Positions 9,492 through 56,931 of a DNA stretch of 64,000 nucleotides are shown in pieces. The notes under the pieces were generated by a model. That model was not told the DNA's origin, did no database searches, and was given only the letters and a program-made list of their open reading frames with translations. Location: positions 33,223 through 97,222 of the forward strand of contig JALHQZ010000005.1 of NCBI GenBank assembly GCA_022841705.1. Reading direction: 5' to 3'. This DNA comes from Pirellulales bacterium (lineage in GTDB: Bacteria; Planctomycetota; Planctomycetia; Pirellulales; Lacipirellulaceae). Numbering within the stretch: the first letter of the stretch is position 1; each line of letters begins with the position of its first letter. Made by a program: the position numbers and the translations under genes.

Positions 9492-9517
9492 CGACCGGGA
9501 CGGACTTCCTGTCTCTC

Positions 9518-9596
9518 GGGTGCCACTGTCCGGGTTGTCCGGCAGTGGACAACGGGTACACGCTTCCCACTGCCGGACAAGCCGGACAGTGGCACG
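9518..9596. promoter_or_regulatory. two tandem 26-bp palindromes CCACTGYCCGG-N5-CCGGRCAGTGG
   Basis: 9523-9548 is CCACTGTCCGGGTTGTCCGGCAGTGG and 9567-9592 is CCACTGCCGGACAAGCCGGACAGTGG. They lie 27-105 bp upstream of the DUF11 lipoprotein start at 9491 on the minus strand. Confidence 0.8.
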
Positions 9597-9913
9597 CAAG
9601 CGCGCAGCACCGCTAGTCTGGGGAACTCTACCGCCTGGGCAGGGTGGATGAGGCGAAATCGCCACATTCTGGGGTGACTTTTCGCCTCATTCAGACCGGT
9701 CGGGCGGGTTATCCGGATTTGACGGGCGGATCAACGACTTGCGTCGATGGAGAGAGGTCCGATTTCGCCTAACCGCGCTGGTTTTCTTGCTTTACCCAGG
9801 CTGCCCGATTACGATCAGGAATATCCGAGCGCTGCTCGGCTGAACCATTGAGGGTCGATCCTGCGCATTGTGATCGACCTCAGCACACCTGCTGCAACAC
9901 GCGACAACTCCCC

Positions 9914-11359
9914 ATGAAACTCTCCTACCGCTCCGTACTCGTTGCTCTCTTGTTCACCTGGGCCTCGATGGCCCACGCCCAATTTGGCGGCGGTGGGGGC
10001 GGACTCGGCGGGGGGGGCGGCGGACTTGGCGGCGGGGGTGGGGGTCTCGGTGGTGGCCAACAAGGTGGCGCCGGCCCCTCGGGCGTTGCAGTCGACGCCA
10101 ACGGAGTGCTGCGGCGTGTGATGTCGCAAGACGCCACCGGGCAGCTCGCGCGGCAACGTGCGAACGAAGCTTTGCAGCGCCTGGAAGGCAACCTTGCCAA
10201 GCCCAGCAAGCTCCGGAAGGTTTCGCTGACGCGACTCGAAAAATTGTTGGCCCAGAAACTCGCTGCAGGCAGCGGACCAGACGATACGATGAAAGCGCTC
10301 GCCGGGCTCACCCGGATCGATTACGTGTTTTGCTACCCTGACAGTGGTGATGTTGTTTTGGCGGGTCCCGCCGAACCGTGGGGCGAAGCGCCGGACAATC
10401 GGCTGCGTGGGGTGACGAGCGGCCGCCCGGTGCTCGAGCTGCAAGACCTGATCGTTGCGCTCCGGGCATTCGCGCCGGAAGCACGCAACAACAATCCGCT
10501 GATCTACTGCTCGATCGATCCCACGCCGGAAGGTCTGTCGCGCATGCAGCAGTTTCTCATTCAGTTCGGCCGGCAAGCCACGCCGAACGACACCCAATTC
10601 ATTGTGAATGAGCTGCAGGAAAAACTCGGCCCGCAGGTGATTACTGTCGGCGGTGTGTCGCCCAAGACGCACTTCGCCCAAGTTCTAGTGGAAGCCGACT
10701 ACCGGATGAAGCTCATCGGCATTGGCCTCGAACGCCCGCCGGTGCGGCTCACCAGCTACGTCGAACGGGCAAACCCCGCGATGGTCGGCCGCAACGCGCT
10801 GCAGCGGTGGTACTTCGTGCCTGATTACCAATGCCTGAAGGTGAGCGAAGATGGCCTGGCGATGGAAATCCTCGGCGAAGGGGTGAAGCTGATCGGCGAA
10901 GATGAACTGGTGCAACAAGATGGTTCGCGCAAGGGCGCCGGCAACTCCAACCGGGCGAGCCAAGGGTTCGTTGATTCGTTCACCAAGGTGTATCCCAAGC
11001 TGGCGGCCGTTTCGCCGGTGTACGCGCAGCTTCGCAATTGCATCGATCTCGCGGTTGCCGCGGCGTTCATTCAGCACCAAGACTTCTACGCCCAAACGGG
11101 GTGGGATTTGGCCATTTTCGGCGATGAGTCGAAGTACCCTGTGGAAACGCTCAACGCCCCGGAAAAGGTCGCCTCGGCCGTGAACAGCATTTGGAAGGGA
11201 AGCACGCTGATGACGCCCATCGGCGGCGGCGTGCAGATTCAGCCGACCATGGCGCTCGAATCGGCCAACCAGCAGCAGGATGAGGAGGGCGTGGTCACCG
11301 CGACCCGCGAACAGGTGCAGCCCAAAAATCTGGCTGACACCCAATGGTGGTGGGACTAG
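9914..11359 (+). CDS. secreted hypothetical protein with an N-terminal (GGGGGGL)x3 glycine-rich repeat
   Basis: Start trimmed to MKLSYRSVLVALLFTWASMAHA (signal peptide), followed by QFGGGGGGLGGGGGGLGGGGGGLGGGQQGG and then a ~430-aa globular region. It may be a planctomycete DUF, but I cannot name it with confidence. Confidence 0.6.
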   Translation: MKLSYRSVLVALLFTWASMAHAQFGGGGGGLGGGGGGLGGGGGGLGGGQQGGAGPSGVAVDANGVLRRVMSQDATGQLARQRANEALQRLEGNLAKPSKLRKVSLTRLEKLLAQKLAAGSGPDDTMKALAGLTRIDYVFCYPDSGDVVLAGPAEPWGEAPDNRLRGVTSGRPVLELQDLIVALRAFAPEARNNNPLIYCSIDPTPEGLSRMQQFLIQFGRQATPNDTQFIVNELQEKLGPQVITVGGVSPKTHFAQVLVEADYRMKLIGIGLERPPVRLTSYVERANPAMVGRNALQRWYFVPDYQCLKVSEDGLAMEILGEGVKLIGEDELVQQDGSRKGAGNSNRASQGFVDSFTKVYPKLAAVSPVYAQLRNCIDLAVAAAFIQHQDFYAQTGWDLAIFGDESKYPVETLNAPEKVASAVNSIWKGSTLMTPIGGGVQIQPTMALESANQQQDEEGVVTATREQVQPKNLADTQWWWD

Positions 11360-11421: not shown

Positions 11422-12768
11422 TCAGTGTTTCCCCACGACAACAACGCGTAAATCACACACGTTGGTTCCCGTCGGCCCCGTCTTCAACAGACCTCCGCAG
11501 TCGTCGAAAAACGTGTAGGCGTCGTTGCGGGCCAAATGGTCTCGAGCACTAAGCCGGGATCTTCGAGCGATTGCGGTGTCCAGAATCGCCCCAGCGGCGT
11601 CAGTGGGGCCGTCTTCGCCATCAGTGCCGGCACTTACGAGGGCGATGTCCTGGCAGTCGCCGAGCACCTCCAGCGCGGCGAGAGCGAGCTGCTGGTTGCG
11701 GCCGCCGCGACCGCGGAGGGCGGGATCAGCGAGTTTGACGGTCGTCTCTCCGCCGGAGATCAGGCAGTTGGGGTTGCCAGAACTGCGCATTCGAAGGGCC
11801 GTCTCAGCCAAATGCCGGCCGACTTCTTCGGCCGGCCCTTCTGTGGCCGTGGCGCAAAGCATCGCGTGGTTGTAGCCGAGGCGCTCCGCTTCGACGCCCG
11901 CCGCATCCACCGCGACGGCATTGTTGCCCAATATGCGATACTCCAGGGCAGCCGTCACCTCGGCTTCGCCCCGCGCTTCGCGACTTAGCGCCCCGATGGC
12001 CCCAGCGCACTCACTCCGCCCGGCCATGGCGTACCGCTGCAAAATCTCCAGCGCTGCGCCTGGCACCGGCGGCGCCGGAACCGTCGGCCCCGACGCGATG
12101 AGATGAACCGGATCGCCCAACACATCCGACAGCGTGAGGGTCACCAGCCGCCCAGCGCGACACGCCCGCGCCAGACCGCCGCGTTTGATGGCGCTGAGAT
12201 TCGAGCGCACGAGATTGAGTTCTTCAATACTCGCGCCGGCGGCGCTGAGCAGCCGCGTGACGGCGATCTTGTCGGCAAGCGTTACGCCCGGCGCGGGCAG
12301 CGGAAGGAGCGCCGAACCGCCGCCGGAGAGGAGGCAGAGGCAGAGGTCGTTCGGTTGAGCGCTGGCCACGAGCTGCATCATCCGCCGGGCGGCGGTTTCG
12401 CCCTCGGGGCGGGGTTCGTTCACTCCGGCGGGGCGGCCGTGGATGAGCTCGATGTGCTCGAGCGGAACTTCGCTACCGGCGGGGATGGAGAGGAGGCCGG
12501 TGAGTTGTGGCGATGCGAAACGTGCGGGGGCCCGTTCAACAGGAGACGGGGCCGCGGCTAACGCCGCTTCGAGGCCGAGGGTCATTGCGGCGCTCGCTTT
12601 TCCGGCGCCGACGACGAGAACGCGGCCGATGGTGCGCAGGTCAAACTGCAAATCATCCACCAGCAGCCAGTGGCCATCAACCACCACCGCTTCCTGCACG
12701 AGCCGCTCTGGATCAACCGCGGCCACGCCGGCACGCCAGATTCGCAGCGCATCATCGCGGAGGGACAT
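11422..12768 (-). CDS. glycerate kinase (MOFRL family, glycerate 2-kinase/TtuD-like)
   Basis: 448 aa with VLVVGAGKASAAM, LSGGGSALL and GTDGEDGPTDAAGA, which are typical of the DUF4147+MOFRL glycerate kinases. Confidence 0.85.
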   Translation of the reverse strand: MSLRDDALRIWRAGVAAVDPERLVQEAVVVDGHWLLVDDLQFDLRTIGRVLVVGAGKASAAMTLGLEAALAAAPSPVERAPARFASPQLTGLLSIPAGSEVPLEHIELIHGRPAGVNEPRPEGETAARRMMQLVASAQPNDLCLCLLSGGGSALLPLPAPGVTLADKIAVTRLLSAAGASIEELNLVRSNLSAIKRGGLARACRAGRLVTLTLSDVLGDPVHLIASGPTVPAPPVPGAALEILQRYAMAGRSECAGAIGALSREARGEAEVTAALEYRILGNNAVAVDAAGVEAERLGYNHAMLCATATEGPAEEVGRHLAETALRMRSSGNPNCLISGGETTVKLADPALRGRGGRNQQLALAALEVLGDCQDIALVSAGTDGEDGPTDAAGAILDTAIARRSRLSARDHLARNDAYTFFDDCGGLLKTGPTGTNVCDLRVVVVGKH

Positions 12769-12788
12769 CTGTATTTCAGAAAAGATGG

Positions 12789-12958
12789 GGGACGCGGATT
12801 AACACGGATGCAGCGGATTAACGCGGATAACAAAAAGGGGAACGCTTATCTACACTAATTCCCACTAATCTGATTAGCGATGATTAGTGGAGATTAGTGT
12901 TCTTCTTTTCTCTCTATTCATCCGCGCGTATCCGCTGCATCCGCGCTCATCCGCGTCC
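12789..12958. repeat. ~170-bp intergenic element: imperfect ~42-bp inverted repeats built from GCGGAT(T) sub-repeats, flanking an AT-rich core containing CTAATC/GATTAG palindromes
   Basis: The left arm is GGACGCGGATTAACACGGATGCAGCGGATTAACGCGGAT. The right arm reverse-complements to GGACGCGGATGAGCGCGGATGCAGCGGATACGCGCGGAT. It lies between the rpiB stop (12973) and the glycerate kinase start (12768). Confidence 0.8.
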
Positions 12959-12972
12959 ACTATCTTCGTTTT

Positions 12973-13425
12973 TCAGCACACGCCGTTTTCGGTTTCGAGC
13001 TGCCCGATCTTTTCGACGCGGCGGGCGTGGCGGCCCCCTTCGAATTCGGTGGTGAGCCACACTTCGACCATCCGTTCGGCAACGCGGGCGCTGAGGAGTT
13101 CCGCGCCGAGGCACAGGACGTTGAGGTTGTTGTGACGGCGGCTGATTTCCGCGGTGACTTCGTCGCTGCACGGGGCGGCGCGGACGCCGCGGAACTTGTT
13201 GGCGGCGATTGACATGCCAATGCCGGTGCCGCAGATGAGGATGCCGCGGTCGATTTGGCCAGTGCTCACTTTGCGGGCGACGATCGACGCGAAGTCGGGG
13301 TAGTCGACGCTTTCGCTGCCGTTCGGGCCGACATCTTCTACGTCGTGCTCCTTACTGCGGAGCACGTTGAGCACAGCTTCTTTCAGGGCGACCCCACGAT
13401 GGTCGCTGGCGACGGCGATACGCAT
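12973..13425 (-). CDS. rpiB: ribose-5-phosphate isomerase B
   Basis: 150 aa with MRIAVASDHRG, ICGTGIGMSIAANK and NVLCLGAELL. Confidence 0.9.
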   Translation of the reverse strand: MRIAVASDHRGVALKEAVLNVLRSKEHDVEDVGPNGSESVDYPDFASIVARKVSTGQIDRGILICGTGIGMSIAANKFRGVRAAPCSDEVTAEISRRHNNLNVLCLGAELLSARVAERMVEVWLTTEFEGGRHARRVEKIGQLETENGVC

Positions 13426-18012: not shown

Positions 18013-18098
18013 ATCAGCCGCCGGGCGCTAGCCCCCGGTCGTTCAGATTGAGTTGACCAGTGTTTTGCACGACCGGGGGCTAGCGCCCGGCGGCTGAT
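18013..18098. repeat. REP-like 86-bp hairpin element, family A copy 1 (ATCAGCCGCC...GCTAGC...loop...GCTAGC...GGCGGCTGAT)
   Basis: ~30-bp perfectly complementary arms and a ~27-nt loop, in the divergent region between fae and the DUF1559 gene. Confidence 0.85.
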
Positions 18099-22342: not shown

Positions 22343-23380
22343 ATGAAATACTTGGTCACCGGTCCCGGTGGTTTTCTGGGGCGTTACATCGTCGAACAAC
22401 TAATCGCCCGCGGTGATGCGGTGCGCGGGCTCGCGCGCGGGAACTATCCGGAGCTGGCGGCGTTAGGGGTTGAACTGGTGCGGGGTGATCTCGCGGATCG
22501 CAAGACCGTCATGGCGGCTTGTGAAGGCATCGACTGCGTCTTCCATGTCGCGGGCCGGGTTGGAGTGTGGGGGAAGTGGAACGACTACGTGCGCGATAAC
22601 GTGCGCGGGACGCTCAACCTCCTCGCGGGTTGCCAGCAACAAGGCGTCGAGCGGATGGTGTTTACTTCCAGCCCGAGCGTCACCTTCACCGGCGAGGATC
22701 AGTGCAACGTCGCTGAGTCGGCGCCGTACGCCACTAAGTGGCTGGCGCACTATCCGCACTCGAAGGCGCTCGCCGAGCAGTTCGTGCTGGCGATGAATGG
22801 CGAAGAGGTTCATGGCGGCGGCGTATTCCGCTGCTGCTCGCTCCGGCCGCACTTGGTGTGGGGGCCGAGGGATCATCACCTCACCGCGCGGCTGGTGCAG
22901 CGGGCGAAGTCGGGCCAACTGCGGCGCGTCGGCGAGGGGAAAAACTTGGTGGACATGATCTACGTCGAGAACGCGGCGACCGCGCACCTGCAAGCGGCCG
23001 ATGCGCTCGCCGTCGCGCCCTACGCGCCGGCAGGTAAGGCGTACTTCATCAGCCAAGGCGCCCCGGTGAACTGCTGGCAATGGATCGACGAGATTCTCGC
23101 CCTGGTCAACCTGCCGCCGGTCACCAAAAGCATCTCGGCCTCGAGCGCTTACCGGGTCGGCGCCGCCTTGGAGTGGGCCCACCGGCTGACCCGCAACCGC
23201 ACCGAACCCCGGATGACCCGCTTCGTCGCCCGGCAACTGGCGACCAGCCATTATTTCAACATCGCCGCCGCGAAGCGCGATTTCGGGTATGAACCCAAGG
23301 TCCCAACGGCCGAGGGGATGCGGCGGTTGGGTGAATGGCTGAATTCAAATGCGGAAGGCGGAATGCGGAATGCGGAATAA
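22343..23380 (+). CDS. NAD(P)-dependent 3beta-hydroxysteroid dehydrogenase/isomerase-family reductase (OleD-like)
   Basis: MKYLVTGPGGFLGRYIV (Rossmann fold) and a YxxxK-type SDR-extended fold. It follows the acyl-AMP ligase 10 bp downstream. The C-terminal 10 codons are encoded by a GCGGAAT tandem repeat. Confidence 0.7.
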   Translation: MKYLVTGPGGFLGRYIVEQLIARGDAVRGLARGNYPELAALGVELVRGDLADRKTVMAACEGIDCVFHVAGRVGVWGKWNDYVRDNVRGTLNLLAGCQQQGVERMVFTSSPSVTFTGEDQCNVAESAPYATKWLAHYPHSKALAEQFVLAMNGEEVHGGGVFRCCSLRPHLVWGPRDHHLTARLVQRAKSGQLRRVGEGKNLVDMIYVENAATAHLQAADALAVAPYAPAGKAYFISQGAPVNCWQWIDEILALVNLPPVTKSISASSAYRVGAALEWAHRLTRNRTEPRMTRFVARQLATSHYFNIAAAKRDFGYEPKVPTAEGMRRLGEWLNSNAEGGMRNAE

Positions 23381-23537
23381 GATCAGCGAGCCGGCTCATC
23401 TTCTCGATTGTGAGGGGCGCAAGTACAATCCTGGATTCGGTTTACGCCGAAACACGGCGGCCCCACTCAGGATTACTGGCGGCCGGCTAGCAACGCAATT
23501 CCGCATTCCGCATTCCGCACTCCGACATCCGCATTCG
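23349..23537. repeat. ~190-bp intergenic element: (GCGGAAT)n tandem heptamers at the left end and (ATTCCGC)n at the right end, flanking a ~115-bp core
   Basis: The left arm is AATGCGGAAGGCGGAATGCGGAATGCGGAAT, which also encodes the last 10 aa of the upstream reductase. The right arm is ATTCCGCATTCCGCATTCCGCACTCCGACATCCGCATTC and ends 2 bp before the aspS ATG. Confidence 0.8.
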
Positions 23538-23539
23538 CT

Positions 23540-25312
23540 ATGCTTCGCACTCATACTTGTGGTGAACTTCGCTCTTCGCACGCTGGTGGCGTGGTCACGT
23601 TATGCGGGTGGGTCGATAGCTACCGCGACCACGGCGGCGGGCTGTTCGTCGACCTGCGCGACCGCTACGGCATCACCCAAGTGGTCTTCAACCCGCCCGA
23701 CTCGTCGGCGGAACTAATCGAGCAATCGAAGCAACTCCGGGCCGAGTACGTGATTCAGGTCACCGGCAACGTCGCCCTGCGGCCCGAGGGGATGGCGAAC
23801 CCGCGGCTTTCCAGCGGCGAGATTGAACTGCGGGCCACGAGCCTCAAGCTGCTGAACAAATCGCTCACGCCACCGGTCTCGCCGAGTGAAAGCATCACCG
23901 AACTGCCGAGCGAAGAGTTGCGGCTGAAGTACCGCTATCTCGACCTGCGACGGCAGAAGATGCAGAAGGCGCTGCTCTTGCGCGACAAGCTCATTAAGCT
24001 GATGCGGGACTACTTCGCCGAGCTCGATTTTATTGATGTCGAAACGCCGATCCTTGGCCGTAGCACGCCGGAAGGCGCCCGCGATTACTTGGTGCCGAGC
24101 CGCGTCCACCATGGGCACTTCTACGCGCTGCCTCAATCGCCACAGCTCTACAAACAGATTTTGATGATGGCGGGCTACGACCGCTACGTGCAGGTGGCCC
24201 GCTGCTTCCGCGACGAGGACCTGCGGGCGGACCGCCAACCGGAGTTCACGCAGCTCGACGTCGAGATGGCGTTCATCGACCACGAAGACATTATGGGCAT
24301 CATCGATGGGCTAGTGGTTAAACTTGCGAAGGAAGTTCACAACCTTGACGTCAAGTTACCGCTGCCGCGGATGACGTACGACGAAGCGATGCGCCGCTTT
24401 GGCCACGATGCGCCCGACCTGCGGTTCGGGCTCGAGATCGTCGACTGCACCGACCTCGCCGCGAAGAGCGAGTTCCGCGTCTTTCAAACGGTGGCCCAAA
24501 GCGGCGGCTTCGTCCGGGCGATCAACGTCAAGAAAGGGACCGACACCTACAGCCGCCGCGGGATTGATAGCCTCACGGAGTTCGTCGCCAACTACGGCGC
24601 CAAGGGCCTCGCGTGGTTCCGCTGCGAAGAGGACGGTACGCTTGGCAGCACCATCGCCAAAAACTTCACACCCGAAACACTGAAGGAATTCGCCACGCGG
24701 CTGAACGCCGAACCGGGCGACCTAATTCTGTTCTCCGCCGACAAGTGGCCCGTCACCTGCAAAGTGCTGCACGCGCTGCGCACGAAAATCGGCGCCGAGA
24801 TGAAACTGTACGACCCGGCCGCGATGAATTTTTCGTGGATCGTAGAGTTCCCCATGTTCGAGCACGACGCGGAAGAAGGCCGGTGGGTCGCCATGCACCA
24901 TCCCTTCACGGCGCCTCTCGATGAGCACCTGCAGTACCTCGACACCGACCCCGGCCGTTGCCGGGCAAAGGCGTACGACCTAGTGATCAACGGCTACGAA
25001 GCGGGCGGCGGCACCATCCGGATTCACGACAATGTGGTGCAATCAAAAGTCTTTGGCCTGTTGGGTCTCTCTGCCGAGGTGGCCAAAGACCGCTTCGGTT
25101 TTCTGCTCGACGCGTTGCAGTACGGCGCCCCCCCGCACGGCGGCATCGCGCTCGGCATCGACCGCGTGGTGATGCTCTTCGGCGGCCTCGACAACATCCG
25201 CGACGTGATCGCCTTCCCCAAAACCCAGAAAGCAACCGACCTGATGACCGAAGCCCCCGGCACGGTCGACGCGAAGCAGTTGCGCGAGCTGGGCGTTAAA
25301 GTGGTGGAGTAA
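23540..25312 (+). CDS. aspS: aspartate--tRNA ligase
   Basis: 590 aa with an OB anticodon-binding domain, class II motifs (FRDEDLRADRQPEFTQLD, GGGTIRIH, GIALGIDR) and the GAD insertion domain. Confidence 0.9.
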   Translation: MLRTHTCGELRSSHAGGVVTLCGWVDSYRDHGGGLFVDLRDRYGITQVVFNPPDSSAELIEQSKQLRAEYVIQVTGNVALRPEGMANPRLSSGEIELRATSLKLLNKSLTPPVSPSESITELPSEELRLKYRYLDLRRQKMQKALLLRDKLIKLMRDYFAELDFIDVETPILGRSTPEGARDYLVPSRVHHGHFYALPQSPQLYKQILMMAGYDRYVQVARCFRDEDLRADRQPEFTQLDVEMAFIDHEDIMGIIDGLVVKLAKEVHNLDVKLPLPRMTYDEAMRRFGHDAPDLRFGLEIVDCTDLAAKSEFRVFQTVAQSGGFVRAINVKKGTDTYSRRGIDSLTEFVANYGAKGLAWFRCEEDGTLGSTIAKNFTPETLKEFATRLNAEPGDLILFSADKWPVTCKVLHALRTKIGAEMKLYDPAAMNFSWIVEFPMFEHDAEEGRWVAMHHPFTAPLDEHLQYLDTDPGRCRAKAYDLVINGYEAGGGTIRIHDNVVQSKVFGLLGLSAEVAKDRFGFLLDALQYGAPPHGGIALGIDRVVMLFGGLDNIRDVIAFPKTQKATDLMTEAPGTVDAKQLRELGVKVVE

Positions 25313-33473: not shown

Positions 33474-33581
33474 GTTTATGCCGCCGAGCGGGCTGTTTCA
33501 GCTACATTTCGTCGGCCAACCGCAATTCTTGGCGAAAATCGCCGGGCCGATTAGTTCGAGAAGGAGGGTTGTGCCGCCATT

Positions 33582-33662
33582 GTAGCAGGCACGGTCCCCG
33601 TGCCGTTGCCCCGAGTTGGAGTCTACCCTCGCAGAAACGGCACGGGGACCGTGCCTGCTACT
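33582..33662. promoter_or_regulatory. 81-nt hairpin with a perfect 26-bp stem (GTAGCAGGCACGGTCCCCGTGCCGTT / AACGGCACGGGGACCGTGCCTGCTAC) and a 29-nt loop
   Basis: Each arm contains the internal palindrome GGCACGG-N3-CCGTGCC. It lies in the divergent region between nfeD (start 33473, minus strand) and the 33741 plus-strand gene. Confidence 0.8.
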
Positions 33663-33740
33663 TTGGGCCGCATTGACGCCAACCGCCATGGCCGGGAAAC
33701 TAAGGGGCGAATCGGACTCGCGTTCCCACGGAAGTTTCCC

Positions 33741-36866: not shown

Positions 36867-36952
36867 ATCAGCCGCCACGCTCTAGCGTCCGGTCGTTCAG
36901 AATGCGGCGCAAATCACTACCAGCGACCGGACGCTAGCGCGTGGCGGCTGAT
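36867..36952. repeat. REP-like hairpin element, family A copy 2
   Basis: It shares the termini ATCAGCCGCC/GGCGGCTGAT and the central GCTAGC with copy 1. The arms carry compensatory substitutions that preserve pairing. It starts 5 bp after the fabF stop. Confidence 0.85.
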
Positions 36953-38689: not shown

Positions 38690-38856
38690 GCGAATGTTTC
38701 ACGTGAAACATTCGCTTTTTCATGCGCCGACTTGAAAAATGTTTCACGTGAAACAATTTGGTCACTCCGCTTCCTGACGGGCGCGGCTCGAAAAAATGTT
38801 TCACGTGAAACAATTTCCCCCTGAGGCCCGCCGTGAATTGTTTCACGTGAAACATT
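38690..38856. promoter_or_regulatory. array of four perfect palindromes sharing the core AATGTTTCACGTGAAACA (copy 1 is a 26-bp perfect palindrome GCGAATGTTTCACGTGAAACATTCGC)
   Basis: Copies lie at 38690-38715, 38738-38758, 38795-38815 and 38836-38856, with centre-to-centre spacing 45, 57 and 42 bp. The region is AT-rich in a GC-rich genome and lies 170-330 bp upstream of the ELWxxDGT giant gene. Confidence 0.85.
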
Positions 38857-42000: not shown

Positions 42001-42157
42001 GCGGGAGGCGGTGTTTGCGGAGCTGGGTGAGGCGGAAACGGTGGCGCCGTCGCGGATGAGTGCGAATCCGAACAATAGCCGGGGAGCTACGCTCCGCGGA
42101 GCGCGGCTGTTGCTAAAACCGCACATTTCTCTGGAAACCGCACTCCGCGGAGCGTAG
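39023..42157 (+). CDS. giant secreted ELWxxDGT-repeat protein with a planctomycete N-terminal motif and C-terminal dockerin-like repeats
   Basis: 1044 aa. The N-terminus RKLRFETLESRAMLAG is a planctomycete secretion-associated motif. About 17 tandem ~50-aa units of G.ELWKSDGTEAGT..VKDI.PG..SS.P..LTNV.G.LYF.A.DG follow (ELWxxDGT repeat, beta-propeller-like). The C-terminus carries two dockerin-like EF-hand repeats (NNIVDQADYDLWRSTFG, DGNDDGIIDAADYTVWRDAL). Confidence 0.8.
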   Translation: MPSRDHHHRKLRFETLESRAMLAGDLELVKDINPSPTGTSSSPSNLVDVSGVLFFVVNDGANGEELWKSDGTEAGTVMVKDIFLGGPSSPRYLTNVGGILYFSANDGVHGSELWKSDGTEAGTVMVKDVRPGFVGSGPSQLINLAGQLVFAASDGSVGQELWRSDGSETGTVLVRDIREGSSSSNPRYFGESGGIVYFRANDGLTGEELWRSDGTSAGTGLVKDIRTGSASSDPRRFTSHQGEVFFVANDGMTGAELWRTDGTASGTMLVRDVFVGSGGADITSLASVGTTLFFAARGNGTAGKELWKTDGTSTGTVLVKDIQSLGSSYPSSLTNVSGVLFFRATDSFGDAGLWKSDGTELGTQILTRTDASAFLNFAGTLYFRGNGGQEIWKSDGTVAGTIIVKANDASYFTTAPQPLVAVGSAIFFRAHDDSHGAELWTSDTSNEGTKLVRDIRTAGGSVGTGVGDASVLDGVVYFFANDGVSGGLWSSNGFEANTLKISPPGVTGIGEIEVAGSVLYFVATVGQDSQLWKSDGTTAGTVLVKDMTPSFRPSSIGELTNVEGVLYFTATDEVSGYELWKSDGTTTGTVRVRDINPGSAGSSPRYLTNVNGTLYFTANNGVTGSELWRSDGTEAGTALVKEIVPGANVFGPAWLTNLGDVLYFVANDGTSGTELWKSDGTSAGTNIVVDIRPGTQSAVPQFLTASDQGLFFSADNGSLGEELWITDGTAVGTRMVKDLTPGFGRGFLGGLQKIGNFVVFRGRDGSTGVELWKSDGTEVGTTLVKDIWQGPGSSLSESVGIINGIPSDLTHYVMANEQLYFRARSSATGTELWTSDGTETGTVIVRDLVAGSGGSYPTGLFAAGDRLFLAALTPEIGSELYSLTTITPPALPGDYTRNNIVDQADYDLWRSTFGSAVNLAADGNDDGIIDAADYTVWRDALPAPIAVATTAVSAIAPQPIAPSPERRVAVKTAPTEALPPLTRGAHERNYDAAREAVFAELGEAETVAPSRMSANPNNSRGATLRGARLLLKPHISLETALRGA

Positions 42158-42257
42158 CTCCCCGGCTATTTGGCTCATCGCTAGCTTCTTGAGCGCTCTC
42201 GCCGCATTCCGGCAGTTCTTGCTAGAATGGGGGTCTTGCCTCGGAGGGCCTCGCACG

Positions 42258-44023: not shown

Positions 44024-44119
44024 GTAGGATGGGTTATCCGCGCCAGCGGTAACCCATCGGACGCCAGAGTCGATCTCACCGCGTGATGGGTTACCGCCAA
44101 AGCGGATGACCCCTCCTAC
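44024..44119. repeat. ~100-bp nested palindromic element, family B copy 1 (GTAGGATGGGTTATCCGCG...CGGTAACCCAT...ATGGGTTACCG...GCGGATGACCCCTCCTAC)
   Basis: It lies between the miaB stop (44002) and the DUF4832 gene start (44195). Confidence 0.85.
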
Positions 44120-46058: not shown

Positions 46059-49000
46059 ATGGAACTCGACCTGCTGAAGCGTTACCTCGACGAGCCCACG
46101 GTGGCGACGCCGTGGCTGCAAACTCTGCGGCTCACCAAGACCAAGAGCGGGCACGACAACCTGCGCCGCATTGCGGAAGCGGGGGTCTCGCTCGATTTGG
46201 TCGATACGCTGTGCGAACAGTTTAAGGCCGCCGCGCCGACGCTCGCCGACGCCGACATGGCGTGGAACAATTTGGAGCGGTTCATCGTGGCGGCGCGGAG
46301 TCCCCTGGCCACGGTGGCGCTGTTCGAGCGCGATCGCTCGGCGCTGCCCAACTTGCTCTCCCTGTTTGCGTCGAGTCAGTACCTGAGCGATTTGTTGGTG
46401 CGCGATCAGGAATGTTACGACCTGCTGCGGATGACAGAGGGTCGGCCGGTGGCCCGCGACGTGCTGGTCGAAGAGATCACCGGCGAAGTTCTAGTGCATC
46501 ACGATATCAACCAAGCGAGTCGCACACTGCGGCGTTGCAAGCGGCGCGAGACGCTGCGGATTGCCTATGGCGATATCGTGCGCGGGCAGGTGGTGAGCAC
46601 GGTCGCGCGGCAGATCTCGTTTCTGGCGGACGCGCTGATCGAGGCGGCGCTCGCGTTTTTGCGGCGGCAACTGGTGGCCAGGTATGGCGAACCGCGCGAC
46701 GCCAAGGGCGACCCCGTGCGATACTGCGTGCTGGCGCTCGGCAAATTGGGCGGGATCGAGCTGAACTACTCGAGCGATATCGATCTGGTATTGCTCTACG
46801 ATCACGACGGTCAAACCTCCGGCCCGCGACCGATTGAGAATCGCGAGTTCTTTGATCGGCTGAGTCGCGAGCTGGTGAAGCTGCTCTCGGAACAAACCGA
46901 GTTCGGCGCCGTCTATCGGGTGGACTTGCGGCTACGGCCCGAGGGAACCCGCGGACCGCTCTGCCCGAATCTCGAGCAGATGATCGCCTACTACGACGTG
47001 AAGGGGCGCACTTGGGAGCGGCAAGCGTATGTGAAAGCGCGGGCCGTGGCGGGGGACATTTCGCTCGGCGATGAACTCTTGCGGCGATTGGAGCCGTGGG
47101 TGTATCGCCGGTACTTGAGTCTCGCGGATATCACGGGGATCAAATCGCTGAAGGCCCGCATCGAACATCGCACGCTGCTAGAAGAAGGGGGTGAACGGAA
47201 TGTCAAGAACGGCCCCGGCGGGATTCGCGACATCGAGTTCGTGATCCAGTTCCTGCAACTGCTGAACGGTGGCACGCTGCCCGAGGTGCGCACCGGCAAC
47301 ACGCTGGAAGCGGTCGAGCGGCTCGCGAAGGCGGGGTGTCTCACGCATCAGGAGGCAACTCTGCTAAGCGATAACTACAGTTTTCTGCGAAAGGTCGAAC
47401 ACCGGCTGCAGATTATGTTCGATCTACAAACGCACACGCTCCCCGCTGAGCCGGACGAGCTGCGCAAGCTGGCCGTGCGGATGGGGTACGTCGGCACGCC
47501 GCACCGGCTGCCGCTGGATATGTTCCGCGGCGAATTGCGCGAGCGGACTGAAACGAACCGCAAGATGCTCGATCACCTGCTGAGCGATGCGTTCGGCGGC
47601 GACCCCACGGCGGAGCCCGAAGTTGACTTGGTGAATGATCCGAGCCCCAGCTTCGAGCGGATTGAAGAGGTCCTCGGCAAGTACCAGTTTGAAGACGCGC
47701 AAAATGCGTACGACAATCTGATGGAACTGGCGACCGAGCGGATTCGATTCCTCTCGACGCGGCGATGCCGGCATTTTTTGGCCTCGATCGCCCCGCGGCT
47801 GCTCACGGCGATTTCACGAACACCAGACCCCGACGGCACGCTGGTGAGTCTGTGTCGGGTGAGCGATTCGCTCGGCGGCAAAGCGGCGCTGTGGGAGCTG
47901 TTTAGTTCCAGCCAGGCGTCGCTGCAATTTTATGTGAAGCTGTGCGCGGCGTGTCCGTATCTTTCCAGCATCCTCACCAGCAACCCGGGGATGATCGACG
48001 AGTTGATGGACAGCCTGCTGGTGGAAAACCTGCCGACACTAGCGATGCTGGAAACCTCGCTGGCGGAACTGGTGCGCGGGGCGGAGGACTTATCACCAAT
48101 TCTGCTCAGTTTCAAAAGCGCCCAGCATTTGCGTGTGGGCGTGCGGGACATTGTGGGCAAGGACGACATCCGCGACACGCATGCGGCGCTGTCGGACATA
48201 GCCGAGTGTTGCCTCAAGGCGATCATCGAGCGGGAGTACCAATGGCTGGTGGACAAGTTTGGCGAGCCGACGATTGGTGAAATGCCCGAACCGACCGCGG
48301 AGAACATGGCGTATCGCAGCCGATTTGCGGAGCGCGTTGGCGAACGCTCGGAACTGGTGGTGCTGGCGCTCGGCAAGCTGGGCGGGCGGGAACCGAACTA
48401 TCACAGCGATCTCGATTTGATTTTTCTATACGAAGCGGAGGGGCAAACGTTCCATCGCAAGCGGGGAAAAACTTCGGGGCTCACCACCACCAACGGCCAC
48501 TTCTTCAGCGAGCTCGGCCAGCGCATCATCAAGGTCGCCAACCAAATCGGCCCGCTCGGCCGGCTGTACGAAGTCGACATGCGGTTGCGTCCCGCCGGCA
48601 AGAGCAGTCCGCTGGCGGCGCCGATTGATAGTTTGGCCCGCTACTTCGCCAGTGGCCGCGGGCAGTTGTGGGAACGGCAAACGCTATGCAAAGCGCGGGT
48701 GATCTTCGGCGCCCACCGCGCGGCGGCATACGCGATGCACACGGTAGTCGAAGCAGCCTACGGCCCCGCGTGGAAGCCGGAAATGGCCCGCGAGATTCGT
48801 GAGATGCGCGCACGACTCGAAGAGTCCGCCACGCCAGCGAACCTGAAGCGTGGCCCCGGCGGCGCGGTGGATACCGAGTTCCTGGTGCAGATGCTGCAAC
48901 TCAAACACGGTCACGAAAACCCCGCAGTGCGTGTGCCGGGGACGCTCGATGCGCTCACTGCACTCGAAGAACACAATTACCTCTCCAGCGGCGACGCCCA

Positions 49001-49226
49001 ATTCTTTCGCCAAGCGTACCGCTTCCAGCGCAGCGTCGAAGCGCGCATCCGCCTGATGAACGCCGCCGGCCGGCATGAATTTCCGAGCGACCCCGCGGAA
49101 CTGGCGAAGCTGGCGTACCTGCTGCGCGGGATTGACCCGACGCTGCTGCAGACCGAGGCGCTCGAGATCTTTGCGGAGACGCGGGAGCGGTTTGAGCGAT
49201 TGTTCGCCGCAGCGGCGGAAAGCTAA
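46059..49226 (+). CDS. glnE: bifunctional glutamine synthetase adenylyltransferase/adenylyl-removing enzyme
   Basis: 1055 aa with two GlnE nucleotidyltransferase repeats (GKLGGIELNYSSDIDLVLLYD and GKLGGREPNYHSDLDLIFLYE), each followed by GlnE-C helical domains (VDLRLRPEG / VDMRLRPAG). Confidence 0.9.
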   Translation: MELDLLKRYLDEPTVATPWLQTLRLTKTKSGHDNLRRIAEAGVSLDLVDTLCEQFKAAAPTLADADMAWNNLERFIVAARSPLATVALFERDRSALPNLLSLFASSQYLSDLLVRDQECYDLLRMTEGRPVARDVLVEEITGEVLVHHDINQASRTLRRCKRRETLRIAYGDIVRGQVVSTVARQISFLADALIEAALAFLRRQLVARYGEPRDAKGDPVRYCVLALGKLGGIELNYSSDIDLVLLYDHDGQTSGPRPIENREFFDRLSRELVKLLSEQTEFGAVYRVDLRLRPEGTRGPLCPNLEQMIAYYDVKGRTWERQAYVKARAVAGDISLGDELLRRLEPWVYRRYLSLADITGIKSLKARIEHRTLLEEGGERNVKNGPGGIRDIEFVIQFLQLLNGGTLPEVRTGNTLEAVERLAKAGCLTHQEATLLSDNYSFLRKVEHRLQIMFDLQTHTLPAEPDELRKLAVRMGYVGTPHRLPLDMFRGELRERTETNRKMLDHLLSDAFGGDPTAEPEVDLVNDPSPSFERIEEVLGKYQFEDAQNAYDNLMELATERIRFLSTRRCRHFLASIAPRLLTAISRTPDPDGTLVSLCRVSDSLGGKAALWELFSSSQASLQFYVKLCAACPYLSSILTSNPGMIDELMDSLLVENLPTLAMLETSLAELVRGAEDLSPILLSFKSAQHLRVGVRDIVGKDDIRDTHAALSDIAECCLKAIIEREYQWLVDKFGEPTIGEMPEPTAENMAYRSRFAERVGERSELVVLALGKLGGREPNYHSDLDLIFLYEAEGQTFHRKRGKTSGLTTTNGHFFSELGQRIIKVANQIGPLGRLYEVDMRLRPAGKSSPLAAPIDSLARYFASGRGQLWERQTLCKARVIFGAHRAAAYAMHTVVEAAYGPAWKPEMAREIREMRARLEESATPANLKRGPGGAVDTEFLVQMLQLKHGHENPAVRVPGTLDALTALEEHNYLSSGDAQFFRQAYRFQRSVEARIRLMNAAGRHEFPSDPAELAKLAYLLRGIDPTLLQTEALEIFAETRERFERLFAAAAES

Positions 49227-49239
49227 TCCCTTAAGAAAA

Positions 49240-49408
49240 GAAGCTTAACCACAGAGAAGACACAGAGAAAGGAAAAAGAGAAGGAAGGAAAAATTGGCAG
49301 ATGCCTATTCTACCGTTCGATCGCTGGTAAGTTGGAAAGAAACTGCCCAAGGAGACCATCCCTCTCTTTCCCTCTGTCCGTCCTCCGTGATCTCTGTGGT
49401 TAAGCTTC
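49240..49408. repeat. ~170-bp intergenic purine-rich element with an 18-bp perfect terminal inverted repeat (GAAGCTTAACCACAGAGA) extended by degenerate AG-rich/CT-rich arms
   Basis: It lies between the glnE stop (49226) and the bamA start (49537) in a low-GC patch. Confidence 0.8.
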
Positions 49409-49536
49409 TCTTTGGTCATTATCGCCGGTAAGTGCTAGCACCTCACGGCGGCTTCTCTTGTAACTTTCACCCGCTTCCGCTAAATCTCTCCCCGCTTGCG
49501 GGTGCGCGGATTTTGTGCGCCGGCTTGCCGACCTTG

Positions 49537-52500
49537 ATGGGCCACTTTCCGAGAGATTTTGTGCCGCAAACTCTTCACAGACTGCTCTTCAGCTTAAGCC
49601 TGGTAGCACTTGTGCTTGCGCCGGCCGCGGGGCAAGCGCCGACGCCGGGGACTCCCTCGGCCCGGTCGCTCTTTGGCGATGAGGAACGGAAACCCATTGT
49701 GCCGGGGCCTTCGGAATTCGCCACCAACGAGCCGGTGATCGATGTGGTGATTGAAGGGAACAAAAGCGTTCCCACCAATCGCATTACAGCCCAGATGGGC
49801 ACCCGCATCGGCCGGCCGTATGACCCCAAAATGGTGCAGCGCGACGTGCGGCTGCTCGCGGGGCTACCGTACTTTGTAAGCGTTCACCCCTTCACGCAGC
49901 AAACCAGCGAAGGGTGGATCGTCACGCTTCGAGTGGTCGAACGGCCCACCATTAAGTACGTCGAGTACCTCGGCAACAAGAAGGTCCGCAACAGTAAGCT
50001 CGCTAAGGAGACGGGCCTACAAGTCGGCGGGGCGGTGGATCCGTTTGCAGTGGAAGAGGGCCGGCGCAAAATCCAAGAGCTATACGAAAACAAGGGCTTC
50101 GCCCGCGTGCAGGTGGAGATTCTCGAAGGCCAAAAACCCCAGGACCAAGGGGTGGTCTATGTGATTAACGAAGGGGGCAAGCAAAAAGTTTGGGGCGTGG
50201 AGTTCGAAGGGAACGAGTTCGCCAGCGACGGCCAGCTTGAAACCAAAATCGAATCGAAACCCGGCTGGACGTGGCCCCTCTTCCCCGGCAAGTTCATTCG
50301 CGAAACGCTGGACGAAGACACCAACAAGCTAATTTCCTACTACCGCTCCTACGGTTTCTTCCAAGCGAAGGTGGGCCGCACGGTGGAATTCGGCGAGAGC
50401 GGCACATGGGCGACCATCAAGTTCGTCATTCACGAAGGGCCGCGCTACAACGTGCGGAATGTTACTTTCCAAGGCAACACAAAATTCGCCAGCGAGTCGA
50501 TCGCCATGGGGATCGAACTCCCCGGCGGCAAGCCGTTCGAACAAGCGGTGATGAATGGCGACACCGAATGGATCAAGCAGCTTTACGGCAGCCAAGGGTA
50601 CGTGTTTGCCGACATCCGCGCGGAGCCCGTCTTTTTGGAAGAGCCAGGGCAACTTGACCTGGTGTACCACATTGAAGAGGGCAAGCGCTGGCGCGTGGGC
50701 CGCATCTTCGTGAACATCAATGGCGAAAATCCTCACACGCGGATTCAAACCGTCTTGAATCGGCTTTCAATCACGCCGGGCGAGATTGTTGACACCCGCG
50801 AATTCCTGGCGAGCGAACGCCGGTTGCGCGCGAGCAGTCTGTTCCTTAGCGATCCGCAGCGCGGGGTGATGCCCAAAATCACGTACCGCATCCCGGAACT
50901 CAGCGACACCGAATTCACGGCCGACAGCGGCGGCTCGCCTAACTTCCGCGGCCAAAGCCCCGACCAAACGCCACAGGTACGACAACTGGCGGCCGGGCAG
51001 TACGAAGTCCATCGGCCGACGACGGAGAATATCGCCGACACCGCCGATCCGAACGACGAGTACGTGGACATCTATTTGGAAGATGCGCCGGGTGTGAATG
51101 CCGCGTCCGCTGCGCCAATCAACAGTGTGTATGCGGCGCTGCCTGTTCCGCCGGTTGATGCGCCGGCGCCGACAGTGCTCGACCGCATCCAGCGCGCGTT
51201 CTTTGGCGATGCCCCCGCGCCGCCGAGCGATCCGTTTCTGCAAACCGCCGCCGAAGGCGCCGCGCTGCAAGCGGCGCCGATCGCAACTACGAACACGCCC
51301 GCGGAACAACAGCGGTACATCGTCTACTATCCCCCAGCGGCGGGGGGAACGGGGTGGCAATCGGCGCCCCCTTCTCAACAGACGCTGGCGCAACAACCCA
51401 CGTCGCAGCAACCGGTTCAACCGCAGCAACCATTCGTTCAGCAGCAACCGGTTCAACAACAGCCCGTGCAGCAATCGATCTACGGTGGCTTGCCGGTCGG
51501 AGCCGCTGGTCCGGGTGAAGGTTCCGCTCCGGTGCAGCCAGTGCAGTTCGCGGAACCGCTGCCTGTGCCGCCGGCCGGCGCCTATCCGGCAGCGCCCCCC
51601 ACTTACGGCACGCCCTACAATCAACCTCCGCCGCAAATGATTCCAGCGCCGATGCCCAATGCCGGCGCGCCGCCAATCGCCAATTCAGGCGAACTGTTCC
51701 CCGGCCCGCAGTTTGGTTCGGCCGGCACGTACAACGATGACGCAGTGGACGTGATTGTCGATGTGGAAGAAACCCAAACCGGCCGCTTTATGGTGGGCGT
51801 GGGGGTGAACTCCAACGCCGGGGTGGTGGGGCAGATCGTGCTCGACGAACGGAACTTCGATTGGCGCCGCCCACCGACCAGTTTTCAAGAAGTGCTTGAT
51901 GGCACCGCGTGGCGCGGCAACGGCGAAGGCTTTCGCTTGGAAGCGGCGCCCGGGACGCAAGTACAGCGGTACCTCGCGAGCTGGCAGAATCCGTACTTCC
52001 TCGATACACCCACCAGCTTAAGCCTGAGCGGTTCGTACTTCGACCGCATTTACGAAGATTGGAACGAAACCCGCGTCGGCGGCCGCGTGGGCTGGGGGTA
52101 CCAGTGGACGGAGAACGATGTGAGCGGCTCGCTCACTTACCGCGGTGAGCAGGTTGAGATTCGCAACATCGATCAATCGCTCCCCGGCGCCCCGCAAGAA
52201 CTGCTCGACACCGAAGGTTACAACGCGGTTCACGGCTTCGGCATCCGCGTGGCGAACGACACGCGCGACAACCCGTTCCTGGCGACCGAAGGTCATTTGC
52301 TCGACTTCACCGTTGAACAAGTGGTCGGCAGCTTCACCTATCCCCGCGCGACGATCGACGCCCACAAATACTTCCTCTTGCGTGAACGGCCCGACCACTC
52401 CGGCCGCCATGTGCTCACGCTCCGCTCGATGGTGGGTGTCACTGGCTCCAACACGCCGGTGTACGACAACTTCTTCGCCGGGGGCTTTAGCACGCTCCGC

Positions 52501-52818
52501 GGCTTCGACTTCCGCGGCGCCTCGCCCGTGAAAGGGAACTCCACCATCGGGGGCCAGTTCATGTGGATCAACACCGTCGAATACATGTTCCCGCTCACGG
52601 CGGACGACATGATTCACGGGGTGACGTTTGTCGACTTCGGCACCGTAGAAGAAAACGTGACGATTAACGATTTCCGCGTGGCGCCGGGGGTCGGTCTCCG
52701 CATCACCATCCCCGCGATGGGCCCCGCCCCGATCGCGCTGGACTTCGCGTGGCCCGTGCAAGACGCCGATTTCGACGACAATCAGGTGTTCACGTTTAAC
52801 ATCGGGTTTATGCGGTAG
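49537..52818 (+). CDS. bamA: outer membrane protein assembly factor (Omp85/D15 family) with a large P/Q-rich insertion
   Basis: Start trimmed to MGHFPRDFVPQTLHRLLFSLSLVALVLAPAAGQA (signal peptide). POTRA repeats (VIEGNKSVPTNRI, VEFEGNEFASDGQL, VTFQGNTKFAS) precede a C-terminal 16-strand barrel region ending ...QVFTFNIGF. A ~270-aa low-complexity P/Q/A-rich segment (nt ~50900-51710) lies between the POTRA domains and the barrel. Confidence 0.85.
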   Translation: MGHFPRDFVPQTLHRLLFSLSLVALVLAPAAGQAPTPGTPSARSLFGDEERKPIVPGPSEFATNEPVIDVVIEGNKSVPTNRITAQMGTRIGRPYDPKMVQRDVRLLAGLPYFVSVHPFTQQTSEGWIVTLRVVERPTIKYVEYLGNKKVRNSKLAKETGLQVGGAVDPFAVEEGRRKIQELYENKGFARVQVEILEGQKPQDQGVVYVINEGGKQKVWGVEFEGNEFASDGQLETKIESKPGWTWPLFPGKFIRETLDEDTNKLISYYRSYGFFQAKVGRTVEFGESGTWATIKFVIHEGPRYNVRNVTFQGNTKFASESIAMGIELPGGKPFEQAVMNGDTEWIKQLYGSQGYVFADIRAEPVFLEEPGQLDLVYHIEEGKRWRVGRIFVNINGENPHTRIQTVLNRLSITPGEIVDTREFLASERRLRASSLFLSDPQRGVMPKITYRIPELSDTEFTADSGGSPNFRGQSPDQTPQVRQLAAGQYEVHRPTTENIADTADPNDEYVDIYLEDAPGVNAASAAPINSVYAALPVPPVDAPAPTVLDRIQRAFFGDAPAPPSDPFLQTAAEGAALQAAPIATTNTPAEQQRYIVYYPPAAGGTGWQSAPPSQQTLAQQPTSQQPVQPQQPFVQQQPVQQQPVQQSIYGGLPVGAAGPGEGSAPVQPVQFAEPLPVPPAGAYPAAPPTYGTPYNQPPPQMIPAPMPNAGAPPIANSGELFPGPQFGSAGTYNDDAVDVIVDVEETQTGRFMVGVGVNSNAGVVGQIVLDERNFDWRRPPTSFQEVLDGTAWRGNGEGFRLEAAPGTQVQRYLASWQNPYFLDTPTSLSLSGSYFDRIYEDWNETRVGGRVGWGYQWTENDVSGSLTYRGEQVEIRNIDQSLPGAPQELLDTEGYNAVHGFGIRVANDTRDNPFLATEGHLLDFTVEQVVGSFTYPRATIDAHKYFLLRERPDHSGRHVLTLRSMVGVTGSNTPVYDNFFAGGFSTLRGFDFRGASPVKGNSTIGGQFMWINTVEYMFPLTADDMIHGVTFVDFGTVEENVTINDFRVAPGVGLRITIPAMGPAPIALDFAWPVQDADFDDNQVFTFNIGFMR

Positions 52819-55478: not shown

Positions 55479-55689
55479 GGCAATCGGGAAATGGGACAGC
55501 TAGCAGTGGAAACTCGGGCAGAGTGGGTGGGCCGGGGGGCCGGTTGTAGGGGTGGCCGGGGTCGGCGCGTCAGCCGCCCCCAGCCGGGGTGGAATGGCCC
55601 CTTGCGAATTCACGGTCACGAACCCGTTGCAGGGGACGCTCAGTCGGCACGGCTGAGGGCGGCGAAAGCGCCGACCCCAGCCACCCACC

Positions 55690-56845: not shown

Positions 56846-56931
56846 GGTTTTCGTAAGTGGCACGCGACCGAAGTCCCGTGCGCAAAATTGTGCTCGCACG
56901 GGACTTCGGTCCCGTGCTACAAACGACTTCA

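Follow-up and report, generated by a model that had tools for sequence, protein, structure and literature searches.

The spacer between rpiB and a glycerate kinase gene of a Pirellulales bacterium is filled by a 185-bp inverted-repeat element, which an inverted-repeat search placed at positions 12782-12966 of a 64-kb stretch of contig JALHQZ010000005.1 (hereafter, the window). Its two arms are 47 nt long and 83% complementary, and they enclose a 91-nt AT-rich core. Repeats of 42 nt around such a core had been proposed in a reading of the letters alone (the sequence-only reading). They are borne out at a slightly greater length, the arm strings quoted for them stand in the sequence as stated, and the core has a GC content of 0.42-0.45, compared with 0.62-0.72 in the flanks. 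Small palindromes that had been noted in the core are also present, in the form of a 38-nt inverted repeat and three occurrences of CACTAATC (0.63 expected), and the string given as CTAATCAGATTAG corresponds to CTAATCTGATTAG read on the minus strand. The element is the longest inverted repeat of the window, and its arm pattern, which had 0 matches in 100 shuffles, occurs there at only these two sites. It is far beyond chance.

Both flanking genes (Table 1) are co-directional on the minus strand and belong to metabolism, as had been proposed: the upstream open reading frame (ORF) encodes RpiB, and the downstream ORF encodes a DUF4147+MOFRL protein of the glycerate kinase type. The claimed distance of 21 bp to the glycerate kinase start holds if it is counted from the first CGGAT-bearing base of the arm, and the extended inverted repeat lies 13 nt from the ATG. 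A gene for a planctomycete-specific DUF1598 protein is located beside the glycerate kinase gene on the opposite strand (9848-11359), and the same neighbour is found in Pirellulimonas (L107).

Table 1. Features of the rpiB–glycerate kinase spacer and its flanking genes, in window coordinates.
Feature	Position	Strand	Description
Downstream gene, glycerate kinase type-2 / hydroxypyruvate reductase-like (DUF4147+MOFRL)	11422..12768	-	ATG 12766-12768
Left outer arm	12782..12828	+	terminus AAGATGGGGGACG, then four CGGAT units
Left-arm CGGAT units	12795-99, 12805-09, 12814-18, 12824-28		spacing 10/9/10, GCAG in centre
Left remnant of outer-hairpin loop	12829..12832		AACA
Inner nested hairpin, second family	12833..12909		inverted repeat 12833-12870 / 12872-12909, 38-nt arms, 76% complementary
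Inner hairpin, left half			GGAAC terminus 12839-43, then CACTAAT(C/T) units at ~10-nt period; centre 12871
Inner hairpin, right half			GATTAG(C/T)G units in mirror image, with GTGTTC at their end (to 12902); further A/T-rich pairing out to 12833/12909
Right remnant of outer-hairpin loop	12910..12919		CTCTCTATTC
Right outer arm	12920..12966	-	minus-strand reading: AAGATAGTGGACG, then four CGGAT units
Right-arm units, as plus-strand ATCCG	12920-24, 12930-34, 12939-43, 12949-53
Upstream gene, rpiB (PF02502)	12973..13425	-	stop codon 12973-12975, 6 nt off element

Folding of the 204-nt spacer predicts a single hairpin on the minus (transcribed) strand, with a free energy of -105 kcal/mol and a z score of -14.3; the plus strand gives -100.4 kcal/mol and -12.9. 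The outer stem of the minus-strand minimum-free-energy structure consists of helices of 10, 18 and 10 bp, of which the 18-bp helix is uninterrupted, and the nucleotides between the CGGAT units happen to pair partly. This predicted fold has the near-continuous duplex, of at least about 20 bp in the transcript, that defines a substrate of the ribonuclease III (RNase III) type. Differences between the two arms are mostly transitions, three of which become G-U pairs, on the transcribed strand only.

An exact-match look-up of the glycerate kinase protein returned no record. The protein is 57-60% identical to the Aeoliella, Botrimarina and Pirellulimonas proteins, which places the genome in the Lacipirellulaceae, and the adjacency of rpiB and the glycerate kinase gene (gck) is conserved among the relatives compared. 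The content of the spacer is polymorphic at these orthologous sites. In line with a comparison that the sequence-only reading had suggested, the element is kept in a locus that is 99.8% identical (L086) and in another, L088, whose flanking genes have ~85% nucleotide identity. It is replaced in L087 (2307-2419; ~85% identity), where a 113-nt spacer holds an unrelated hairpin of TTGGTCAT units (-53 kcal/mol, z -8.6), and it is absent from Aeoliella mucimassa, whose spacer is 24 nt long, and from Pirellulimonas nuda (L107 1413-1500), whose 88-nt spacer contains about four tandem 16-nt repeats resembling CCCACGACTCCCCTGA. These relatives show that the spacer was short at first, as it is in Aeoliella with 24 nt, and the element has thus been inserted into a compact operon. 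The position in L087 retains a hairpin, though its sequence has been replaced.

Where it is present, the element is more conserved than the adjoining genes. Roughly equal distances separate the window lineage, L087 and L088, and the L088 element differs from that of the window by 4 substitutions in 204 nt (98% identity), with no insertions or deletions. Identity in a sliding window is 0.95-1.0 over the spacer and 0.75-0.9 in coding DNA, and at a divergence of 15% the binomial probability that 204 nt contain no more than 4 changes is 3e-10. The four substitutions carry no covariation information.

The CGGAT-arm family

We scanned one genome per GTDB species for the pattern CGGAT-N5-CGGATGCAGCGGAT, which has 19 specified bases, and obtained 85 stretches, where a rough estimate predicts a handful by chance. 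About 25 are chance or coding matches, and ~55, from at least five phyla, share the extended consensus (A)AT(A/G)GnAC-G-CGGAT-nnnC(G/A)-CGGAT-GCAG-CGGAT-nnnC(G/A)-CGGAT. In the arm unit, a terminus AAT(A/G)GnAC leads into four C(G/A)CGGAT heptamers at a spacing of 10/9/10 with a central GCAG. Its hosts include Planctomycetota (Planctomicrobium, Lacipirellulaceae, Planctomycetaceae), Chloroflexota, Bacteroidota (Bacteroidales, Saprospiraceae), Gemmatimonadota, Desulfuromonadales (Desulfuromonadaceae, Geobacteraceae), KSB1, Blastocatellia and others, and several single genomes contain many copies. A wider search for the arm, which the sequence-only reading had advised, is therefore positive in many genomes across phyla, but within the window it finds the two known arms only.

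A profile hidden Markov model built from 57 foreign arms, none of them from the window or its orthologues, matches the left arm with an E value of 5.3e-14 and the right arm with 1.2e-11; the next-best match in the 64 kb has an E value of 0.76. Both window arms have 0 mismatches across the four CGGAT units. The two profile matches make membership of the window copy in the arm family solid, and by sequence the outer arms can be assigned to a cross-phylum family that we name here the CGGAT-arm family.

Convergent pairs of arms bracket cores of 10-26 nt (bare hairpins), 85-150 nt or 285-500 nt, and 18 elements with cores of 10-500 nt were found besides the window copy. Divergent pairs, with their termini inward, occur between ordinary genes in Bacteroidales, and there are also single arms. 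Cores are unrelated among the copies within one Planctomicrobium genome (L001, L026, L034). Six copies in a Gemmatimonadaceae genome have a common core, and are therefore true multi-copy elements. In this genome (DATFBS01; L003, L025, L030, L039, L067) the six copies share the ~85-94-nt core and also ~20 nt outside the arm (ctggcatccaagttcaaag), so the repeat unit extends beyond the arms.

To see which positions are conserved, we compared the two arms of 19 elements per position with each other and with random-partner arms. Identity of the CGGAT units is 0.9-1.0 with true and with random partners alike, and the arm termini are partner-specific. The 3-nt spacers match no better between true partners (0.16-0.37) than between random ones (0.28-0.36), and typical family arms, if folded, would form 7-bp helices split by 3x3 loops. 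Since the heptamers and terminus are conserved and the spacers are not, a continuous stem is not the conserved feature. Spacer covariation is absent across the family, which therefore gives no covariation support for an RNA structure. The conserved, phased units point to sequence-specific recognition of the units themselves.

No arm was found in viral contigs, and the consensus hairpin had no blastn match in plasmids. A literature search with an arm 14-mer and its reverse complement returned no paper, and 10-mers matched unrelated primers only. Rfam, to which the sequence-only reading had looked, has no family at gathering score in the window and none of relevance in 18 family loci; at E<=10, positions 12700-13050 give chance-level matches only, MIR408 and sR44 being chance matches to the long hairpin. 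We found no Rfam family or publication that describes the element.

These results bear on the candidates named in the sequence-only reading, of which a MITE (miniature inverted-repeat transposable element) is a near fit. A riboswitch, attenuator or thermosensor dedicated to glycerate kinase would agree with the strong fold of the element and with its place on the transcribed strand immediately before the start codon. However, the same arms stand beside unrelated genes in many phyla and enclose unrelated cores, the close relative L087 has a different hairpin and Aeoliella has none. There is also no Rfam match, and we found neither a conserved loop like a ligand pocket nor an alternative terminator/antiterminator pairing. 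An independent small RNA gene would agree with the size of ~185 nt and the stable structure, but no sigma-70-like promoter or intrinsic terminator was found inside the element, which fills the spacer of a conserved operon exactly, and the family behaves as a repeat rather than as a conserved single-copy gene. Taken together, the family distribution, the lack of an Rfam match and the lack of promoter and terminator signals effectively exclude both explanations; we regard a dedicated cis-regulatory RNA as hardly credible, and a stand-alone small RNA as extremely improbable.

GxxExxY genes between the arms

The long-core elements encode GxxExxY proteins of ~130 amino acids (TIGR04256, E 1e-36 to 1e-38; PF13366 PDDEXK_3), which we saw in long cores of Bacteroidales, Desulfuromonadaceae and Planctomycetaceae. 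GxxExxY genes adjoin arms in 8/8 cases among arm-selected loci. As a control for this selection, six homologues from a protein search were chosen solely by the length of the host contig, regardless of arms, and each of the six is flanked, within ~130 nt to either side, by CGGAT-unit arms or complete hairpins. The gene flanked by arms thus encodes a Cas4/RecB-like PD-(D/E)XK protein of the GxxExxY type in 14/14 cases examined, with no other enzyme gene between arms, and we consider the association of CGGAT arms with GxxExxY genes highly probable. A tblastn search of the 64 kb gave no GxxExxY gene, which makes the window copy a gene-less form, like most copies of the family.

Only one relative of GxxExxY was found in IMG/VR. 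It is 36% identical, and its gene (L108 542-977) lies between 30-nt inverted repeats that consist of CGC(G)AAAAG units. This different flanking unit suggests that the unit sequence may be specific to the GxxExxY clade. We also considered a phage vector for the family, which is not supported, because viral contigs lack the arm and contain this single distant GxxExxY only.

The catalytic residues, comprising the E of GxxExxY, a D and the ExK, are invariant among the GxxExxY proteins. The AlphaFold model has a pLDDT of 91, and among solved structures it comes closest in fold to Cas4 SSO0001, to lambda exonuclease and to the nuclease domain of AdnAB; a sequence search of the PDB gave no match, so that only the fold search was informative. 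The family is large, with 27,196 cluster representatives at E<=1e-3 (clusters at 50% identity) and 10,752 at E<=1e-10. A census of PD-(D/E)XK proteins lists GxxExxY / PDDEXK_3 as "function unknown" (PMC3424549), and in the literature on GxxExxY, PDDEXK_3, TIGR04256 and PF13366 we found incidental mentions only and no paper on flanking repeats.

Among the best representatives, P0241-P0245 are proteins of ~260 amino acids with two tandem GxxExxY domains. Many GxxExxY proteins lie on contigs of only ~1 kb, a length that would fit with breaks in the assembly at flanking repeats, and CGGAT arms probably break metagenome assemblies in this way. On a Caldilineales contig (L102 1464-2123), 7.1 tandem copies of a 93-nt unit, made up of a CGGAT-type hairpin and a 28-nt spacer, stand immediately downstream of a GxxExxY gene, with 94% identity between them. 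We considered integron attC sites and CRISPR arrays and rejected them, as neither an integrase nor a cas context is present, and the array in L102 is simply a tandem duplication.

If a protein recognizes the units, the repeat might act on DNA rather than RNA. The four phased CGCGGAT sites of each arm would then be bound by GxxExxY or a host factor, and any effect on rpiB and glycerate kinase would be exerted through a DNA-protein complex or cruciform, for example as a roadblock, through local topology or as a recombination site. Conservation of the heptamers and their 10/9/10 phasing with spacers that are not kept complementary, single arms and divergent pairs between divergent ORFs, folding without a consistent strand bias, and a unit that differs by GxxExxY clade (CGGAT vs CGCAAAAG), as co-evolving protein-DNA recognition predicts, all agree with such a function. 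On the other hand, no binding protein is known, the arm differences in the window are mostly transitions that yield G-U pairs only on the transcribed strand, and the core, which has no CGGAT units, is as strongly conserved as the arms in L088. We consider an action on DNA unlikely on balance.

The nested core and comparable repeat systems

A scan of metagenomes with the core pattern CACTAAT-N3-CACTAATCTGATTAG yielded four distinct loci, none of them rpiB-gck, all intergenic and on contigs of 55-63% GC. The hairpin at these loci has the form GGAAC-(CACTAATC)n-T-(GATTAGTG)n-GTTCC. It is free-standing in L091. In L092 (1641-1793) it resides inside 33-nt outer arms of CGCAAAG units, which is the unit type that flanks the viral GxxExxY gene; L092 is thus an architectural twin of the window element with different outer arms. 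The core of the window element belongs to this independent, second hairpin family and is nested in the outer loop. When the inner hairpin is removed, the outer arms are left with a 14-nt loop (AACA + CTCTCTATTC), inside the 10-26-nt range of bare family hairpins. In the simplest history, a bare CGGAT hairpin would have entered the spacer, and an ACTAATC hairpin would then have entered its loop.

The separate nested hairpin, the GxxExxY genes flanked by arms, and the conservation of four phased heptamers rather than a continuous stem all go beyond the sequence-only reading. We also considered a sponge for CsrA, because every CGGAT unit contains GGA, and rejected it: the GGA is buried in the stem, and the sister units CACTAATC, TTGGTCAT and CGCAAAG lack it.

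Among known systems, the element is most like REP sequences (repetitive extragenic palindromes), the bacterial interspersed mosaic elements (BIMEs) built of them, and the REPIN hairpins associated with REP-associated tyrosine transposases (RAYTs), by analogy in organization (PMC3116915, PMC3337134). In both cases, copies of a short extragenic unit occur alone, as head-to-head or tail-to-tail pairs that fold into long hairpins, and in clusters whose linkers vary; a small enzyme gene is flanked by inverted repeats, and most copies are gene-less. The enzymes differ, however, being PD-(D/E)XK GxxExxY proteins here and Y1 transposases of the IS200/IS605 type there. A REP is an imperfect palindrome of 20-40 nt with a 5' GTAG, whereas the arm consensus (AATAGAACGCGGATnnnCGCGGATGCAGCGGAT...) consists only of direct heptamers and is not self-complementary. 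RAYTs are typically single-copy and vertically inherited, with lineage-specific REPs (PMC3116915, PMC3337134), whereas GxxExxY genes are multi-copy and the arm of four phased heptamers is common to several phyla. With neither a Y1 RAYT nor a palindromic GTAG-REP, the element is not a REPIN-RAYT member.

Correia elements of Neisseria (CREE/NEMIS) are also gene-less intergenic elements, of 100-160 bp, with terminal inverted repeats; they are co-transcribed and have stems that RNase III binds or cuts, and their mobilizing enzyme is unknown (PMC2649163). Their terminus, TATAG(C/T)GGATTAAC, resembles the ATAG..CGGATTAAC of the CGGAT family, but each of their ends carries a single GGAT unit, their core is conserved, and a TA is duplicated at the target. 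In a gapless comparison with the arm profile, the best Correia variant scored p 0.001 and the other three 0.014-0.37, before correction for multiple comparisons; with so weak a score, homology is not shown. Intervening sequences in the 23S rRNA of Coxiella, Leptospira and Salmonella similarly carry a small ORF of unknown function within terminal inverted repeats (PMC4990558). Their stem is cut by RNase III, so that the insertion is removed at the RNA level, and the 5' stem of the Coxiella sequence contains 3-4 tandem heptamers GACAGAT (PMC4990558). The cargo there is a four-helix-bundle (S23p) protein, and the site is rRNA helix 45 rather than an mRNA spacer.

Classical bacterial MITEs are of similar size, likewise have terminal inverted repeats but no coding capacity, lie between genes and are present or absent among relatives (PMC10969869), and the element itself is small, has terminal inverted repeats and has no ORF. 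However, no target-site duplication could be shown, no canonical transposase parent is known for CGGAT arms, cores of the CGGAT family are mostly not conserved between copies, and the arms also occur as separate units. The element fits a loose definition of a MITE except in target-site duplication and copy number in its own genome.

Other hairpins in the window have a comparable appearance, and the genome is unusually rich in intergenic hairpins. One at 23348-23535 occupies the whole spacer between co-directional plus-strand ORFs (22343-23380 and 23540-25312) and has the same design as the rpiB-gck element with a different unit: its 31-nt arms of tandem GCGGAAT heptamers are 90% complementary and enclose a core of 119-126 nt (-100 kcal/mol, z -7.1). 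Its left arm contains the stop codon of the upstream ORF, and the ATG of the downstream ORF follows 5 nt past the right arm. A second whole-spacer hairpin, at 49236-49412 between the co-directional ORFs 46059-49226 and 49432-52818 (-68 kcal/mol, z -5.3), has 22-nt arms AAAAGAAGCTTAACCACAGAGA that are 95% complementary, followed by purine-rich/pyrimidine-rich pairing. REP-like hairpins at 18013-18098 and 36867-36952 have a common arm, ATCAGCCGCC...GC(T)CTAGC...CCGGTCG, with arms of 29-33 nt that are 97% complementary, and are apparently another small repeat family of this genome. A perfect palindrome of 21-24 nt, AATGTTTCACGTGAAACAATT, occurs three times in 120 nt at 38736-38856 in an arrangement like an operator array with a CACGTG core. 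Long GC-rich inverted repeats, with arms of 32-43 nt and 83-97% complementarity, are located at 9515-9600, 33577-33666, 42074-42170, 44024-44119, 55550-55686 and 56851-56926.

Origin and possible role of the rpiB-gck copy

We favour, with reasonable but not strong confidence, the explanation that the element is a gene-less composite insertion similar to REPs and MITEs, which is presumably co-transcribed and has been retained as an intercistronic RNA hairpin. The parts of this explanation differ in strength. That the element is a gene-less composite member of the CGGAT family is, from its sequence, very probable. By analogy with RAYTs and REP/REPIN sequences, the GxxExxY nuclease would recognize the phased heptamers and spread or maintain the repeats, and gene-less copies would be passengers of the GxxExxY system; such mobility is possible, but we hold to it only tentatively.

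A role for the window copy would lie in RNA. Co-transcribed on the minus strand of the rpiB–glycerate kinase operon, its predicted stem would, by analogy with Correia elements and 23S intervening sequences (PMC2649163, PMC4990558), serve as a substrate of RNase III or shield the upstream rpiB segment. A processing or stability hairpin between the cistrons would uncouple the expression of rpiB and glycerate kinase, and this role would be what selection preserves. Such a role would explain the near-unchanged retention in the diverged relative L088. The RNA-processing role at this locus is nonetheless a conjecture that may well turn out to be wrong.

Several observations weigh against the explanation we favour. 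The whole composite of CGGAT arms and this core was not found elsewhere in the metagenome core scan, and there is a single copy in the 64-kb window of this genome. A target-site duplication is not demonstrable from the flanks of 16 elements, in which the only recurrent match is a palindromic AT (11/16) that is part of the terminus and indistinguishable from the inverted repeat. The nuclease activity, the heptamer binding and the mobility role of GxxExxY are purely inferential. At the RNA level, 8 independent elements fold better on the sense strand and 5 on the antisense strand, and there is therefore no family-wide sign of selection on RNA; family hairpins in Bacteroidales are often between divergent ORFs, and hence outside an mRNA. 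Finally, the 98% identity with L088 could derive from a short recombination tract rather than from selection.

This last point leads to the alternative that the element is a selfish relic without present function, a decaying non-autonomous insertion whose near-identity in L088 results from a recent short tract of recombination or gene conversion. Presence, absence and replacement among equidistant relatives agree with that view, as do the status of the rpiB-gck spacer as a hot spot for unrelated repeats and the lack of a GxxExxY gene in the window. However, the tract of high identity coincides with the spacer and does not extend randomly into the genes, and the stem is intact and free of insertions and deletions despite ~15% divergence in the flanks. 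A relic of this kind is, in our judgement, improbable.

Around the favoured explanation, a retained composite insertion, a broader proposal can be framed, which we find doubtful as a whole. In it, GxxExxY proteins would be the enzymes of an undescribed REP-like system parallel to REPIN-RAYT, with clade-specific phased units (CGGAT, CGCAAAAG and perhaps CACTAATC) and with hairpins that are spread or maintained across at least five phyla. New hairpins would land in the loops of older ones and produce nested composites, and the rpiB-gck copy would be a domesticated composite, selected as an RNA processing site.

As an extragenic palindromic repeat system, the family is of a known kind, but the enzyme family associated with it is new, and its cross-phylum heptamer-array arm is unusual. 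Unlike lineage-specific REPs, the arm is conserved almost base-for-base between phyla. A repeat that is inserted in a compact metabolic operon, yet is more conserved than its neighbours, is the type of evidence that bears on how extragenic palindromes become host functions. The GxxExxY / PDDEXK_3 family gains a testable role and a defined DNA or RNA substrate, and with these an entry point into a large unexplained system.

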